16,934 nt of DNA from NCBI GenBank assembly GCA_049971805.1, contig JBMFKU010000026.1, positions 1 through 16,934 of the forward strand, read 5' to 3'. Positions within the stretch are counted from its first letter, which is position 1. Each line of letters opens with the position of its first letter. Of the stretch, positions 5,368 through 11,942 are shown one piece after another. Origin of the DNA: Caldisphaera sp. (GTDB lineage: Archaea > Thermoproteota > Thermoprotei_A > Sulfolobales > Acidilobaceae). Below the pieces are notes generated by a model, which was not told where the DNA came from, did not search any database, and worked only from the letters and a program-made list of their open reading frames with translations. The translations under genes were made by a program, and so were the position numbers.

Positions 5368-6360
5368 ATGTCACTTAGATTAGGAACAAAAATTACAAGA
5401 CCTCCAAAAGGAGAACGTTATGATACGTTAATAGTAGGCGGGGGACCAGCTGGTTTCTCAGCAGCAATATATGCATCTAGGTTCTTGCTAAAATCTGCTA
5501 TAGTTGCTGAAGAAATAGGTGGACAGCTAAATCTGACCGATGTCGTAGATGATTATCCTGCTACTCTTTCTATTAAGGCTTCAGAACTTGTTTCAAGGTT
5601 TAGAGAGCATGCTGAAAAATTATTTAGAGTACCAGTTTATGAATTTATTTCAGTAAAAAAATTTGATAAAGTGCAAGAAGAATATCATGTAGTTGGTAGT
5701 AATGGGTTAGATGTATATGCTAAAACAATCATATTGGCTGTTGGCTCAAAAAGAAGAAAATTAAATGTACCTGGAGAAAATGAATTTGCAGGAAAAGGGG
5801 TAAGCTATTGTAGTATTTGCGATGCACCTCTGTATAAAGGAAGAGATAGCGTTGTTGTGGTTGGTGGAGGAGATGCTGCACTAGAAGGGGCTTTATTATT
5901 AAGCGGCTATGTAAAAAAAGTTTATTTGGTCCACAGAAGGGATCAGTTTAGGGCAAAGCCTTTTTATGTTACACAGGTTTTAAACAAGAAAAACATTGAT
6001 ATTCTTTATAATAGTTTAGTCATAGAAATAAAGGGAGATACTTTAGTAAAGGGTGCCATTGTTCAGAACAAGAAAACTCAAGAAAAGAAGGAATTATTGA
6101 TAGATGGAATCTTTATAGAAATAGGATTTGAGCCTCCAAAGGAATGGTATCAATCATTGGGCTTAGAAACGGATGAGCTGGGTTATATTAAAGTTGATGA
6201 TTGGATGAAAACAAATTTACCAGGGGTTTTTGCTGCTGGCGATGCTACAAGTAAATGGAGGGGGTTTAGGCAAATAGTTAATGCAGCAGCATCTGGAGCT
6301 ATAGCCGCTTACAGCGCGTATACATATTTGACGGAAAAGCTATCTAGTGTGGTGAAATAA
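5368..6360 (+). CDS. trxB: Thioredoxin reductase
   Basis: GGGPAG (FAD), GKGVSYCSICD (redox CxxC), VVGGGDAA (NADPH), HRRDQFRA and TNLPGVFAAGD. Confidence 0.92.
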   Translation: MSLRLGTKITRPPKGERYDTLIVGGGPAGFSAAIYASRFLLKSAIVAEEIGGQLNLTDVVDDYPATLSIKASELVSRFREHAEKLFRVPVYEFISVKKFDKVQEEYHVVGSNGLDVYAKTIILAVGSKRRKLNVPGENEFAGKGVSYCSICDAPLYKGRDSVVVVGGGDAALEGALLLSGYVKKVYLVHRRDQFRAKPFYVTQVLNKKNIDILYNSLVIEIKGDTLVKGAIVQNKKTQEKKELLIDGIFIEIGFEPPKEWYQSLGLETDELGYIKVDDWMKTNLPGVFAAGDATSKWRGFRQIVNAAASGAIAAYSAYTYLTEKLSSVVK

Positions 6361-7412
6361 TGGCACAGCTAAAAGTTGAAGATGTATATGATGCACTTAA
6401 TGAAAGACTTAAAAAGCAAGGATATCATTTAGTTGGAAATCATAGCTCAGTTAAAAAGTGTTTTTGGAATCATGCTGCAATAACTGAACATAGATTCTGT
6501 TATAAATGTAAATTTTATGGTATTGAGAGCCATAGGTGCATTCAGTTAAGCGTTTCAAACCATTGGTGTTGGAATGCATGCACGCATTGTTGGAGGCTTA
6601 GGCCTCAAGATGTAGGACTAGAATGGAATGAAACTGTTATGCCTTATAATGATGATCCTAAGTTTATTATGGACAATGCTATAAAAGAATATAGAAGAAT
6701 AATGAGCGGATATAAAGGAAGACCTGGAACTGATTTAAAGATGTATGAAGAAGCTATGAATCCTAAGCACGTAGCAATAAGTTTAACAGGAGAACCGACA
6801 TTATATCCTAGGCTGGGAGAACTTATTAAGGAAATACATAATAGGGGCATGTCTTCATTTTTGGTAACAAGGGGTATTAGGCCTGATGTTTTAGGAAACC
6901 TTGAGGAAGAACCATCCCAAATATATATAAGCCTAGAGGCATGGGATAAAGAGTCATATAATTTATTTAATAAGCCTTTGGTACCAAGAGGTTGGGAATT
7001 GACTTTAGAAACCCTTGAAATGCTACCTAGCTTTTCGTCGACAACTGTTTATAGAATAACTTTGGTTAAAGGGTTTAACGATACCGATGAGGCAGTAAAA
7101 GGGTTTGCTAGGCTAATAAAACTGGGCATGCCAAGCTATATCGAAGTTAAGGCATTTATGTATGTGGGGGCTAGTAAAATAAGACTTACAAAGGATAATA
7201 TGCCAAGCTATAATTACGTTAAAGAAATTGCAAACAAAATAAGCGAAGAGAGTGGATACCCAATGGTTAGCGAAAGTATACCCAGCAGAATAGTTCTATT
7301 AAGCAATTTAGAAAAACCAGTAAGATATGGTAATGGTTGCCCAATGGGATGGAGTCATAAAGAAGATAATAAACCAGGAGAATATGAGGTATGCGATGAA
7401 GATTGCTCATAA
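6360..7412 (+). CDS. taw1: 4-demethylwyosine synthase (radical SAM, Taw1/TYW1)
   Basis: GYHLVGNHSSVKKCFW, CYKCKFYGIESHRCIQ, radical SAM CWNACTHCWR, PKHVAISLTGEP and YIEVKAFMYVG. Start overlaps the trxB stop (TAATG). Confidence 0.95.
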   Translation: MAQLKVEDVYDALNERLKKQGYHLVGNHSSVKKCFWNHAAITEHRFCYKCKFYGIESHRCIQLSVSNHWCWNACTHCWRLRPQDVGLEWNETVMPYNDDPKFIMDNAIKEYRRIMSGYKGRPGTDLKMYEEAMNPKHVAISLTGEPTLYPRLGELIKEIHNRGMSSFLVTRGIRPDVLGNLEEEPSQIYISLEAWDKESYNLFNKPLVPRGWELTLETLEMLPSFSSTTVYRITLVKGFNDTDEAVKGFARLIKLGMPSYIEVKAFMYVGASKIRLTKDNMPSYNYVKEIANKISEESGYPMVSESIPSRIVLLSNLEKPVRYGNGCPMGWSHKEDNKPGEYEVCDEDCS

Positions 7413-7673
7413 TAAACCATAATTGATAAAATTTTAAATTATTAATATTTATTAAGAATCCGCTTCCTAGTACTGTGAAGATAATAAGATTTATAAATAT
7501 TAAACAGCTTATATAGTTACGAGATAGCAATGAAGGAGTGCCAGCATAAGATTAGCTTTAGGCTAAAGATGCATGGAATCTTTAGTTATCTGCTCCCCAG
7601 ATGAAAGATGCAAATGGATGGGAGAGAATTTTAACTTCAAAGAAAACATTTAGGGCGTGTATAGATAGGTAAG

Positions 7674-7736
7674 ATGATGAGGCCTCGCATCGCAGAGTGA
7701 ATGAAGATTGAAAATGATTAAGGGTGCAAGCTCTGA
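7674..7736 (+). ncRNA. C/D box methylation-guide sRNA; D guide predicted to target U34 of tRNA-Ala(UGC)
   Basis: C box ATGATGA (7674-7680), 12-nt guide GGCCTCGCATCG, D' CAGA (7693-7696), C' ATGATTA (7714-7720), 12-nt guide AGGGTGCAAGCT, D CTGA (7733-7736). Confidence 0.8.
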
Positions 7737-8022
7737 AGTAGCTAGGAAGGAAATAGCAAGCATAGTAGATAATTTGTTTAAATATTATTATGATTTTTTT
7801 AGCAATAATGAAGTTTTAAATAGTGATGGAATAAGATTATATAAAAGAATTTCTTATTATTTATATTTGTTAGATGACAAACTAGCCATAAGCTATTATA
7901 AGGAATCTTTAAGGGATCCTAGCTTAGAAAATGTATTAAAATTTTCTAATCTTTTTTTGAATGATTTGGACGATAAATTAAAGATATATATTTATGGAGA
8001 ATTTTATAAGATTAAAAAATAA
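7708..8022 (+). CDS. Hypothetical protein (about 100 aa); 5' end overlaps the C/D sRNA, start uncertain (TTG 7708 or ATG 7714)
   Basis: Open frame with host-like composition, converging on 8034. No motif recognised. Confidence 0.65.
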   Translation: MKMIKGASSEVARKEIASIVDNLFKYYYDFFSNNEVLNSDGIRLYKRISYYLYLLDDKLAISYYKESLRDPSLENVLKFSNLFLNDLDDKLKIYIYGEFYKIKK

Positions 8023-9623: not shown

Positions 9624-9728
9624 CCCGCCGTAGCTCAGCGGTAGAGCGCCCGGCTGTAGTGAGACAAGGCAGTATCGGCCTTCTTAGCCGATACCGGGTG
9701 GTCCGGGGTTCAATTCCCCGCGGCGGGA
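9624..9728 (+). tRNA. tRNA-Tyr(GUA) with a 33-nt intron at 37/38 (9660-9692); CCA not encoded
   Basis: CCCGCCG TA GCTC AGCGGTA GAGC G CCCGG CTGTAG [intron] A CCGGG TGGTC CGGGG TTCAATT CCCCG CGGCGGG A. C1-G72 and A73 are archaeal Tyr identity elements. Confidence 0.95.
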
Positions 9729-10671: not shown

Positions 10672-11739
10672 TTAGGGTATGACCTCTGTAGAATCAAGAG
10701 TTGGATCGTAATATAAATCATTTATATCAATAACTTTATCCTTTATTAACTCATCTATTTTAGGTATAATAGATAATACGTATTTTATATATTGTTTATT
10801 AACATCATCTACAATTTCAAAACCTTCTTTATCCCAATAAGGTTCCATATAGGCATATAGACATCTCCCCCCACAATATCTCTTAAATTCACAATTTTTG
10901 CAAACATCTGGTAAAGGATCTTGCATCAATTTATACCCGCTATTAACATTACCTAGTACAGACCATTGCTCTCTTACAGCTATTGGACAGGCCAAAATTC
11001 TTCCATCAGATGATACTGTAATTGATTTATATCCAGCACCACAAGGAGAACCTATATATCCGCTAAAATAGTGCGCACTTAATAAGCCTAAAATAGGTAT
11101 AATTTTTATTAATTTTCCTTTCATTGCTTGTCCTAAAAAATAGTTTATTAATTTCTTTAATCCTGGCAAATAGTTTTCATACGCCCACTCCTTAAAATTC
11201 CAAGGTTTAGACCAAATTACATTTAATTGCCAATGGATCTTATCAAATATTTTTAGATCAATTAAATGCATTACATCTAAATAAATGTCTGTATCTTTAG
11301 TTGCTGTCATTCTAGCTATGGTCTCTATTTTGTTATTAATTTCTTTTAGATATGTAGCACTTTTAATTACATTATCATAAACCCCTTTACCTCTATGTTT
11401 ATCAGTTATCTCTTTTCTACCATCTATAGAAAGAAGGGCTACATTTATTTTCTTCCAATAATAATTTGGCAAATTCTTAATTAGTAGACCATTTGTTTGA
11501 ATGCCAAATCTTTTTGCATTAATGTTGTTTAATACATCAATAATGAATTTGGGGTTTAATAGAGGTTCTCCACCATAAAAAATTATTATTGGATTGTTGT
11601 CCTTCTCTATTAATTTTTTTAATTTATTTATATCATAATTAATTTTCCATGGAACTATGTTATTTGGAAAAGATCCTCCACAATAATCACATTTAAGGTT
11701 GCATTGACCAGTTGCGGTTAATATCCACAGCATCCTCAT
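10672..11739 (-). CDS. Radical SAM/SPASM domain protein (AF0577/TIGR04084-like)
   Basis: [30 protein letters not shown] Cys motifs [12 protein letters not shown] and [14 protein letters not shown]. Confidence 0.88.
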
Positions 11740-11785
11740 TTTCCCTGCTATAACTTTAGTAATTAGTAAAAAGCTTTAATAAAAA

Positions 11786-11859
11786 TGGACCGGCCGGGAT
11801 TTGAACCCGGGGCCTCTCGGGTGCAAGCCGAGCGCTCTTCCAGTCTGAGCTACCGGCCC
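11786..11859 (-). tRNA. tRNA-Ala(UGC); CCA not encoded
   Basis: GGGCCGG TA GCTC AGACTGGAA GAGC G CTCGG CTTGCAC CCGAG AGGCC CCGGG TTCAAAT CCCGG CCGGTCC A. G3-U70 identity pair, followed by a T-run, with TTTTTAAG TATA upstream. Confidence 0.97.
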
Positions 11860-11942
11860 ACGCAATAAATTAATTATATCTAGGGACTTAAAAACAATTT
11901 TGTATTTTTATTTTCTCATAAATATAAAAAGTGTTTGATTTT

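Follow-up and report, generated by a model that had tools for sequence, protein, structure and literature searches.

Positions 7674–7736 of the forward strand of the analyzed DNA, a 16,934-nt stretch of a Caldisphaera sp. contig (hereafter, the window), very likely constitute a true archaeal gene for a box C/D sRNA, ~63 nt in length, whose two guides are predicted to be aimed at U34 of tRNA-Ala(UGC) and at G26 of tRNA-Gln. The encoded RNA is probably a C/D sRNA of a known kind that guides the formation of Um34 on tRNA-Ala(UGC). Direct reading of the forward strand revealed the full archaeal layout, namely, C–12 nt–D′–17 nt–C′–12 nt–D (Table 1), and the boxes, the 12-nt spacings and the additional ATGAAGA motif described in the earlier note were all recovered. 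Terminal C and D boxes, internal D′ and C′ boxes and guide spacers of ~12 nt, by which archaeal C/D sRNAs are recognized, were present, and the GA dinucleotides were intact in both internal boxes despite their one-base deviations. Typical archaeal C/D sRNAs have a D′–C′ loop of a few nucleotides and a total length of 50–60 nt; the candidate departs from this compactness, which is a typical rather than a strictly defining trait, with a spacer of 17 nt and 63 nt overall. The D′–C′ spacers in relatives from two genera ranged from roughly 4 to 17 nt. The Rfam models favored ATGAAGA as box C′, a choice that would leave a guide of 25 nt, and in some homologues this motif takes the part of box C′, with 12 nt separating it from box D. 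The candidate RNA showed no stable fold of its own in which the guides would be masked (z = +0.67). It should be noted that the window copy was the least canonical of its genus, with no terminal stem, CAGA as box D′, AUGAUUA as box C′ and the 17-nt D′–C′ spacer.

Table 1. Coordinates of the candidate sRNA, its neighbors and its predicted targets.
Feature	Position	Strand	Remarks
taw1/TYW1-like radical-SAM wyosine gene	6360–7412	+	Pfam Wyosine_form and Radical_SAM; conserved upstream neighbor
Possible archaeal BRE/TATA-like element, AGAAAA-CATTTAGG	7641–7654	+	Found by eye; ~24 nt 5′ of box C
Box C, ATGATGA	7674–7680	+	Agrees with the consensus RUGAUGA; also taken as box C in alignments to Rfam C/D models
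D′ guide, GGCCTCGCATCG (12 nt)	7681–7692	+	Direct reading
Box D′, CAGA	7693–7696	+	One base off CUGA
D′–C′ spacer (17 nt)	7697–7713	+	Contains a second C′-like motif, ATGAAGA, at 7701–7707
Box C′, ATGATTA	7714–7720	+	One base off consensus; 12 nt from box D
D guide, AGGGTGCAAGCT (12 nt)	7721–7732	+	Direct reading
Box D, CTGA	7733–7736	+	Kept together with the guide in relatives
Conserved small ORF (about 100 aa)	7714–8022	+	No Pfam family; TTG start at 7708 also possible
tRNA-Ala(UGC), predicted substrate	11785–11860	−	ARAGORN; Rfam tRNA, 67.8 bits; U34 at 11825
tRNA-Gln(UUG) and tRNA-Gln(CUG), predicted targets outside the window	G000:C4:78765-78855 and C7:55844-55937		Identity backed by intronless homologues

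The D guide AGGGUGCAAGCU is predicted to target U34 of tRNA-Ala(UGC), an intronless tRNA whose anticodon arm (CUCGG-CUUGCAC-CCGAG) is near-invariant throughout the order. The sequence GGGTGCAAGC at 7722–7731 is read identically on the forward strand at 11819–11828, and therefore the guide RNA is antisense to the tRNA encoded on the minus strand. The guide forms 10 Watson–Crick pairs with G31–C40 as well as the pair U7732:G30, and the fifth base 5′ of box D, A7728, forms a Watson–Crick pair with U34; the antisense match, the U–G30 wobble and the count of five bases onto U34 had been reported earlier and were confirmed on the sequence. The energy of the duplex was −22.0 kcal/mol vs. −8.0 ± 2.5 kcal/mol for shuffled guides. 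The 16S and 23S rRNA genes were not assembled in the genome containing the window, and those of a complete genome of the same genus were used instead; among these rRNAs of the congener and 44 tRNAs, the D guide had a strong partner in tRNA-Ala(UGC) alone. The linkage of guide and target at 4 kb, to which the earlier note had drawn attention, is present and has the look of conserved synteny (1.5–11 kb in relatives) rather than of a functional link.

The D′ guide GGCCUCGCAUCG is predicted to target G26 of tRNA-Gln(UUG) and tRNA-Gln(CUG), which were its best partners in the same search of 44 tRNAs and the 16S and 23S rRNAs of the congener. Pairing with GGAUGCGGGGCC of tRNA-Gln is contiguous, comprising 10 Watson–Crick pairs and one G·U pair, and the fifth base 5′ of box D′, C7688, forms a Watson–Crick pair with G26, the G linking D stem and anticodon stem. 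Both guides have the complementarity of at least 9–10 bp to a stable RNA, with a Watson–Crick pair at the fifth base, that is expected of archaeal C/D sRNAs. The tRNA-Gln genes of this genome are intron-bearing, with the guide-paired nucleotides 23–33 lying in exon 1, and the site AAGGAUGCGGGGC was invariant in this genome and in the five relatives checked. The tRNA-Gln site was absent from the earlier note and was found in the course of the present analysis. Behind a C box, the D′ guide was detected in 12/12 genomes of the sister genus and also in other genera at 0–1 mismatch; in several of the latter, it was preceded by a C box and followed at the same 12-nt distance by CTGA, CCGA or ATGA as box D′. 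The search for the D′ guide at two mismatches was noisy (roughly 50 control matches vs. roughly 95 real ones), and of its matches those with 0–1 mismatch were used, together with those inspected in their genomic context. In some copies of the sister genus, box D′ lies 15–16 nt rather than 12 nt behind box C, by which the G26 prediction would be shifted or abolished there.

The complete layout is rare by chance: a strict C-12-D′-x-C′-12-D regular expression gave four matches in the 1.5-Mb genome vs. 0, 0 and 0 in three shuffled versions. At least 10 contiguous Watson–Crick pairs to any of the 44 tRNAs were found for 0.17% of the 12-mers of the genome and for ~1% of random 12-mers at 60% G+C. 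At the gathering threshold, the Rfam scan of the window matched only tRNAs and no C/D family. Below the threshold, matches to sR4 (RF01125; 19.5 bits), sR1 (RF01152; 16.7 bits), sR5 (RF01304; 15.8 bits) and snoPyro_CD (RF00095; 14 bits) were recorded, for which the gathering scores are 50, 45, 40 and 45 bits, respectively. The box arrangement aligned with these families over the full model length; however, the scores below gathering and the unrelated guides indicate that the window RNA is not a member of any of them. The Rfam scan of 14 homologues gave no match save one sub-threshold match to sR3. Targeting of rRNA was rejected, as neither guide had a run of at least nine contiguous pairs in the 16S and 23S rRNAs of the congener, with the exception of a weak match of six Watson–Crick and three G·U pairs. 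The genome contains genes for fibrillarin (PF01269, 335 bits) and Nop5 (PF01798, 253 bits), adjacent to each other on contig C2, and two matches to the L7Ae family (PF01248).

The D guide together with box D (GGGTGCAAGC-N-CTGA, GGGTGCAAGCTCTGA) was identical in 7/7 genomes of the genus. At no more than one mismatch, GGGTGCAAGCTCTGA was found in 69 of the 325 genomes of the order vs. ~11 matches for a reversed-pattern control, and an RTGA box was located 18–23 nt 5′ of box D in 47 of the 70 homologous places fetched vs. 4.8% of random positions. In these 47 places, the C′–D distance was 12 nt in 33 cases and 13 nt in 12. The genomic contexts of the guide and box D differ across the order (intergenic regions, sRNA arrays and 3′ ends of genes), and for this reason a shared protein-coding constraint cannot account for their conservation. 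In every homologue, the guide adjoins box D in one register, so that the fifth base always falls on U34. Judged from these comparisons, the guide appears to be conserved in thermophilic Crenarchaeota of many families, ranging from Acidilobaceae to certain Sulfolobaceae-like genomes; a Sulfolobaceae-like lineage of the order carries a homologue with the guide GGGUGCAAAC. Conservation of the boxes and the guide in relatives, a check proposed in the earlier note, was thus favorable, being complete in the genus and widespread in the order in varied contexts. The covariation of guide and tRNA, also proposed there, was partial. At nucleotide 32, guide A was opposite U32 in three genomes from two lineages and opposite C32 in one, whereas guide G was opposite C32 in 38 genomes and opposite U32, as a G·U pair, in four (Fisher p = 0.009, the lineages not being independent). 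At nucleotide 37, covariation was rejected, since the guide C variant of the sister genus faces A37 as a mismatch; this variant, GGGCGCAAGC, in which pairing is weakened, was present in 5/9 copies of the sister genus. Editing of A37 to inosine as a rescue of the C variant was considered and dropped as unsupported. In 4/7 genomes of the genus, box C of the element was deviant (A/GUGAUUGA), box C′ lay 15–16 nt from box D and the D′ guide was not conserved.

A terminal stem of at least 4 bp around boxes C and D was found in 15 of the 16 copies from two genera, whereas in the window copy it was missing (0/7 pairs). Two pairs of this stem showed compensatory changes: pair 4 was U-A in five copies, C-G in five, U·G in two and G·U in three, and pair 5 was C-G in six copies, G-C in six and A-U in two. 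The sRNA overlaps the first codons of the small ORF, as the earlier note had stated and as was verified on the sequence. Box C′ contains the first in-frame ATG of this ORF, whose opening codons, read through box C′, the D guide and then box D, give the N-terminus M-I-K-G-A-S-S-E. Two genera share the conserved peptide G-A-S-S-E-G, the codons of which are supplied by the guide, by box D and by the 3′ side of the stem. Homologues of the small ORF overlap the sRNA in 7/7 genomes of the genus and in 12/12 of the sister genus, and two homologues located apart from any sRNA have no GASSE N-terminus. The codons GGT GCA AGC TCT were identical in 7/7 genomes; synonymous sites were frozen in 4/4 of these codons vs. 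1/12 comparable columns elsewhere in the ORF (p = 0.003), where comparable columns were invariant ones with codons at least 4-fold degenerate. The locus is a clean natural case of an overlapping reading frame whose sequence is dictated by an RNA guide and not by the protein.

The position of the sRNA downstream of taw1, noted earlier, was likewise verified, and taw1 was found upstream of the sRNA in 11/11 relatives examined. The gap between them was 5–12 nt in seven relatives and 88–117 nt in four, and it reached 261 nt in the window. A search of the genome with this 261-nt spacer (7413–7673) for repeats and mobile elements yielded only short AT-rich matches. The taw1, sRNA and small-ORF sequences form a conserved unit of Caldisphaera/Acidilobus-type Acidilobaceae, in which the sRNA of the relatives is probably matured from the 3′ region of taw1, while the window copy, with its longer spacer, perhaps has its own promoter.

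According to the preferred reading, the RNA would be expressed and, with L7Ae bound to its C/D and C′/D′ motifs, would recruit Nop5 and fibrillarin. Among the sequencing runs searched for this locus, three hot-spring metagenome DNA runs of one study were listed and no RNA run. Pairing of the D guide with nucleotides 30/31–40 of tRNA-Ala(UGC) would bring the U34 ribose, at the wobble position, into the active site of fibrillarin, the expected product being Um34 or a 2′-O-methylated U34 derivative. Similarly, pairing of the D′ guide with nucleotides 23–33 of both tRNA-Gln would position G26 for conversion to Gm26, which may account for the ribose methyl in m2,2Gm26. A point against this explanation is that each guide has to break into GC-rich stems of its target tRNA. 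A rival explanation is that the C/D family is real and the window copy, or the pairing with tRNA, nevertheless gives no Um34, either because the copy is decaying or because the RNA has a non-catalytic role as a tRNA folding chaperone or an antisense binder. The absence of all stem pairs in the window copy, its degenerate internal boxes, 17-nt D′–C′ spacer and 261-nt displacement from taw1, as well as the persistence of mismatched guide variants in relatives, are consistent with this. However, boxes C and D show no deviation, the two spacings measure exactly 12 nt each and neither guide is damaged, and archaeal sRNAs are often without long terminal stems. Moreover, the guide keeps one fixed register relative to box D in all families, as expected for catalysis at the fifth base and not for mere binding. 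We therefore consider the absence of Um34 formation improbable.

Two further explanations proceed from the overlapping ORF. If the likeness to a C/D sRNA were due to chance, conservation would come only from the N-terminus of the small protein and its translation start, in favor of which is the peptide G-A-S-S-E-G, conserved in two genera and encoded by guide, box D and 3′ side of the stem. This protein-only reading is already contradicted by the comparative data: the synonymous positions are frozen; other families keep the motif in contexts that are unrelated or do not code for protein; conservation extends to the non-coding D′ guide; the stem carries compensatory changes; and the full layout did not occur in the shuffled genomes. 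We regard it as the least credible of the alternatives. The other explanation is that the region acts mainly as a k-turn bound by L7Ae for the translational control of the small ORF, with the guide role being secondary or absent. The start codon inside box C′ and the first codons formed by the guide and box D would fit such control, and in S. acidocaldarius, L7Ae bound to a 5′-UTR k-turn is described as repressing translation (PMC5539422). The likeness to these L7Ae-bound mRNAs lies in the k-turn-forming boxes at the start of a coding region; the difference is that those of the candidate are parts of an entire guide RNA whose targets are conserved, and regulation of the ORF is conjecture. In addition, the same guide and D box are kept in many genera that have no overlapping ORF, homologues of the ORF occur without the element, and the exact tRNA complementarity of both guides would be left unexplained. 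Predominant translational control is, thus, very unlikely.

A more far-reaching version of the preferred reading, to which we assign a rather low probability, combines the two functions. In this dual use, an ancient, order-wide tRNA guide would have been overprinted by the start of a small protein in the Caldisphaera/Acidilobus lineage, and each transcript would be either packaged or translated, with the occupancy by L7Ae and Nop5 gating translation. The guide would give Um34 on tRNA-Ala(UGC) and, in this lineage, Gm26 on tRNA-Gln; guide, box D and terminal stem together would determine the residues G-A-S-S-E-G, with the start codon inside box C′. Located on the 3′ end of taw1, the unit would then constitute a small tRNA-modification operon.

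C/D sRNAs targeting wobble nucleotides have already been described for tRNAs of Trp, Met, Leu, Gln, Thr and Val. In Pyrobaculum, 32 sRNA families are aimed at 23 tRNA positions, among them the wobble guides sR27 (U34 of tRNA-Gln), sR46 (U34 of tRNA-Thr), sR26 (C34 of tRNA-Trp) and sR45 (C34 of tRNA-Val) (PMC6009581). The window sRNA resembles these families in having a guide complementary to the anticodon loop of one tRNA, with the fifth base on nucleotide 34, and in its occurrence in a thermophilic crenarchaeon, and some Pyrobaculum families likewise overlap protein genes (PMC6009581). Beyond the boxes, there is no sequence homology between them and the window sRNA. In contrast to the present case, tRNA-Ala(UGC) does not figure as a wobble target in the parts of that study searched; ~80% of the tRNA-targeting sRNAs of Pyrobaculum have only one targeting guide, whereas here both guides have predicted targets, in two different tRNAs; and the guides overlapped by genes are mostly orphans there, a trend opposite to that of this locus (PMC6009581).

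In S. acidocaldarius, methylation of U34 and G18 of tRNA-Gln(UUG) was predicted from an sRNA and observed by mass spectrometry, and in the parts of this tRNA survey searched, Um34 is mentioned for tRNA-Gln only (PMC7668247). That sRNA, as described, belongs to the same order and is also dual-guide and dedicated to tRNA, with wobble U34 as one of its sites. Its two sites are in one tRNA, whereas those of the window sRNA, predicted from the sequence, are U34 of tRNA-Ala and G26 of tRNA-Gln. The source named for the S. acidocaldarius sRNA is reportedly Ziesche 2004. For P. furiosus, G26 guides were predicted for tRNA-Val and tRNA-Gly, and m2,2Gm26 was observed (PMC7668247). Guides of Pyrococcus and Haloferax include the tRNA-Trp intron (Cm34, Um39) and that for Cm34 of tRNA-Met (PMC7994747, PMC2584109, PMC7668247). 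Common to these guides and the candidate is 2′-O-methylation of tRNA nucleotide 34 or 26 by a fibrillarin RNP, in our case predicted; the described guides differ in being euryarchaeal and, in several cases, in using intron pairing on intron-containing pre-tRNAs.

Attribution of U34 ribose methylation of tRNA-Ala(UGC) to a guide was not found in the parts of the literature searched. With its ribose methylated, the wobble nucleotide U34 is expected to become more rigid and to favor purine-ending codons, and this preference fits the separate alanine tRNAs with GGC, CGC and UGC anticodons that are kept by the genome. If confirmed, the prediction would assign an enzyme system to a wobble Um34 or a 2′-O-methylated U34 derivative of tRNA-Ala(UGC), and the D′ guide would be a candidate source of the ribose methyl in Gm26 or m2,2Gm26 of tRNA-Gln. 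Given its apparent conservation over many families, the D guide would rank among the more deeply conserved tRNA guides.

The candidate RNA contained the complete series of boxes and two 12-nt guides listed in the table, and is almost certainly a genuine box C/D sRNA. Re-reading of the sequence bore out the earlier note in all its coordinates and counts, including the boxes, the 12-nt guides, the antisense match to tRNA-Ala and the placement of the fifth base upstream of box D (+5) on U34. The strict layout, expressed as C-(11-13)-D'-(2-18)-C'-(11-13)-D, was found at four places in the 1.52-Mb genome and at none in each of three shuffled genomes. The self-structure of the sRNA was not notable (z = +0.67), and Rfam held no curated family for it, all C/D matches being sub-threshold (sR4, 19.5 bits against a threshold of 50; sR1, 16.7 against 45; sR5, 15.8 against 40). 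The window is contig C26 and occurs in DNA runs labelled hot-spring metagenome; its genome (66 contigs, 96.6% complete, ~33% G+C) contained adjoining fibrillarin and Nop5 genes on contig C2 and two L7Ae-family genes. A further C/D candidate, canonical throughout, was present on contig C18 at ~821 (-) (locus L184, ATGATGA-11-CTGA-5-ATGATGA-12-CTGA); each of its guides had a 9-mer complementarity to a tRNA, the D' guide to one called Thr(agt) by ARAGORN and the D guide to tRNA-Val(CAC).

Features of the candidate guide RNA locus and of the predicted D-guide target
Feature	Position	Strand	Description
taw1	6360-7412, upstream of sRNA	+	Wyosine_form + Radical_SAM
sRNA	7674-7736	+	~63 nt
Box C	starts the sRNA	+	ATGATGA, read from sequence
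D' guide	between box C and box D'	+	GGCCTCGCATCG, 12 nt, read from sequence
Box D'	after D' guide	+	CAGA, read from sequence
D'-C' spacer	between box D' and box C'	+	GTGAATGAAGATTGAAA, 17 nt, read from sequence
Box C'	after 17-nt spacer	+	ATGATTA, read from sequence
D guide	between box C' and box D	+	AGGGTGCAAGCT, 12 nt, read from sequence
Box D	ends the sRNA	+	CTGA, read from sequence
Small ORF	7714-8022	+	
tRNA-Ala(UGC) gene	11785-11860	-	anticodon arm CUCGG-CUUGCAC-CCGAG

The core of the D guide (7722-7731) was identical in every letter to the plus strand at 11819-11828, and, since the tRNA gene lies on the minus strand, the sRNA is antisense to nt 31-40 of tRNA-Ala(UGC); U7732 could additionally form a wobble pair with G30. 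A7728, the fifth base upstream of box D, pairs with U34 (11825). Only 0.17% of genomic 12-mers, and ~1% of random 12-mers of 60% G+C, could form 10 or more contiguous Watson-Crick pairs with one of 44 tRNAs, and the guide-tRNA duplex reached -22.0 kcal/mol versus -8.0 ± 2.5 for shuffled guides. Judged from sequence, the D guide would very probably direct 2'-O-methylation of U34 in tRNA-Ala(UGC). The distance between sRNA and tRNA gene was 1.5-11 kb in several genomes, and we read this proximity as synteny. The tRNA-Ala(UGC) gene is adjoined by a second radical-SAM gene (Radical_SAM + Fer4_12; 10672-11739, minus strand).

The region was matched in all six other genomes of the genus, and GGGTGCAAGCTCTGA was exact in 7/7. 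The 15-mer of guide plus box D, with at most one mismatch, occurred in 69 of the 325 genomes of the order (77 listed places), against ~11 matches, counted manually, for a reversed-pattern control; variants were mostly limited to the base adjoining box D (GGGTGCAAGC-N-CTGA). Among the 70 listed places for which sequence context was retrieved, an RTGA box preceded box D by 18-23 nt in 47, compared with 4.8% of random positions, implying guides of 12 nt (n = 33), 13 nt (n = 12) or 15 nt (n = 2). In about eight more, a box stood at 12 nt in slightly altered form (ATGGAGA or ATGGGGA in the sister genus; CTGATGA in two genomes), and ~13 places without a box look like chance matches. The register of the guide to box D was constant across homologues, and the +5 position therefore falls on U34 in every case. 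In other genera (L051-L053, L063-L069), the unit often stood in tandem with more C/D-like units, the next ATGATGA or GTGATGA box beginning 3-6 nt from its D box, which suggests polycistronic sRNA arrays.

Conservation of a neighbouring or overlapping protein could in principle produce such a pattern. The ORF downstream of taw1 is a real gene: its product, ~100 aa long and without a Pfam family, carries a conserved LNSDGxRLY motif and was encoded in 7/7 genomes of the genus and 12/12 of the sister genus, with the start lying within the sRNA every time. The guide, however, occurred in widely varied contexts, namely, downstream of taw1, within arrays of C/D-like units and at the 3' end of an arginine-rich ORF, so its conservation is attributable to the RNA rather than to a neighbouring protein. 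Two homologues of the small ORF in other genera sit elsewhere and have no G-A-S-S-E N-terminus. Because the overlap is specific to one lineage while the guide occurs across the order, it was the protein start that was laid over the sRNA, not vice versa. Moreover, GGT GCA AGC TCT, the codons covering the guide and box D, were identical in 7/7 genomes; elsewhere in the ORF, identical codons were found in 1/12 invariant columns of at least fourfold degeneracy (p = 0.003) and in 7/35 invariant columns of any degeneracy (p = 0.004).

Of the 16 copies in the two genera that share the taw1-sRNA-ORF order, 15 had a stem (≥4 bp) directly outside boxes C and D, the window's own copy being the sole exception. 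Stem changes were compensatory (e.g., GCUCCC/GGGAGC, GGUCCC/GGGACC, GGCCCC/GGGGCC and ACCUCCC/GGGGGGU), pair 4 being U-A (n = 5), C-G (n = 5), U.G (n = 2) or G.U (n = 3), and pair 5 C-G (n = 6), G-C (n = 6) or A-U (n = 2). The gene taw1, for which the closest named records were from Caldisphaera sp. or Acidilobaceae archaeon (83-85% identity), followed by Acidilobus sp. (71-74%), preceded the sRNA in 11/11 relatives examined, with gaps of 5-12 nt (n = 7) or 88-117 nt (n = 4). In the window the gap was 261 nt, in which no repeat or mobile element was found; a BRE/TATA-like AGAAAA-CATTTAGG was noted by eye ~24 nt upstream of box C. A hairpin-like GCTCCCC...GGGAGAG at 7592-7628 resembles the GCUCCC/GGGAGC terminal stem of the sister species and may mark a former sRNA site adjoining taw1, a resemblance short of demonstrated homology.

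Guide and target covaried in part. The anticodon arm of tRNA-Ala(UGC), read in 183/325 genomes, was near-invariant among those listed, except for C/U at nt 32 and A38 in some families. Counting only genomes in which the sRNA is credible and tRNA-Ala(UGC) known, guide G stood opposite C32 in 38 and opposite U32 (a G.U pair) in four, and guide A opposite U32 in three from two lineages (G205, G214, G311) and opposite C32 in one with a poor box (G268); the association was significant by Fisher's test (p = 0.009), with lineages non-independent. In two further genomes with guide A (G258 and G310), tRNA-Ala(UGC) was not assembled. Counter-evidence is the variant GGGCGCAAGC, fixed in 5/9 copies seen in the sister genus (L149-L152, L029), which places C opposite A37 while the tRNA keeps A37. 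In the overlapping ORF of this GC-rich genus the substitution turns GGT into the synonymous GGC; the resulting mismatch at +8 is tolerated, which suggests that pairing past about +7 is less tightly constrained.

The D' guide GGCCUCGCAUCG formed 10 Watson-Crick pairs and one G.U pair with two tRNAs wrongly labelled Pro(tgg) and Pyl(cta) by ARAGORN. Their intronless homologues read CGGGG-CUUUGGC-CCCCG and CGGGG-CUCUGGC-CCCCG, and the two tRNAs are therefore tRNA-Gln(UUG) and tRNA-Gln(CUG), beyond which the genome yielded no tRNA-Gln calls. The +5 base of the D' guide is C7688; it pairs with G26, which separates the D stem from the anticodon stem. The D' guide followed a C box in 12/12 genomes of the sister genus and, at a locus apart from the Ala guide, in 4/4 genomes of another genus of the family; other families carried the variants AGCCUCGCAUCA, GGCCCCGCAUCA and GGUCCCGCAUCA after a C box, with CTGA, CCGA or ATGA at exactly 12 nt, all complementary (Watson-Crick or G.U) to the invariant tRNA-Gln site AAGGAUGCGGGGC. 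From these pairings the D' guide would probably direct Gm26 in tRNA-Gln, with the caveats that box C to D' box measured 15-16 nt in some sister-genus copies and that the guide was absent from 4/7 genomes of the genus, whose C box is deviant. Because 16S and 23S rRNA genes were not assembled in this 96.6% complete genome, rRNA targets could be assessed only on the rRNAs of a congener.

With splice sites inferred by eye, tRNA-Gln(UUG) (contig C4, 78765-78855, minus strand) and its sister-genus homologues L185/L186 had an apparent C33 and, once the intron is removed, the loop CCUUGG...C; U33 is near-universal, and the loop is CUUUGGC in homologues of two other families that lack the intron. An intron-containing tRNA gene in the window at 9624-9728 (+) (59.8 bits to the Rfam tRNA model; 36-nt anticodon-loop insertion) was missed by ARAGORN at default and called Tyr(gta) with introns enabled.

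Box C/D sRNAs targeting tRNAs are known as a kind, and the present sRNA is an added example. In published surveys, 32/110 Pyrobaculum families are aimed at 23 positions in tRNAs, and the wobble guides for single tRNAs include sR26 (C34 Trp), sR27 (U34 Gln), sR45 (C34 Val) and sR46 (U34 Thr) (PMC6009581); Haloferax has Cm34 guides for Trp and Met (PMC2584109). In S. acidocaldarius, sRNAs predicted modification of tRNA-Gln at U34 and G18, and both were observed; G26 guides were predicted for tRNA-Val and tRNA-Gly of P. furiosus, and m2,2Gm26 has been observed (PMC7668247). In the sRNA sets of Ignicoccus and S. acidocaldarius, complementarity to tRNAs was remarked on but "not compiled" (PMC4644070). 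Full-text searches covering main texts turned up no tRNA-Ala U34 guide. In Pyrobaculum, guides overlapping coding sequences are mostly orphans (PMC6009581), whereas in the present sRNA the guide under the coding sequence is conserved and has a predicted target. The sRNA is of note for a predicted wobble target, tRNA-Ala U34, that is deeply conserved and was not listed in the texts searched, as a putative dual guide with tRNA-only targets, and for a coding sequence overprinted on a guide.
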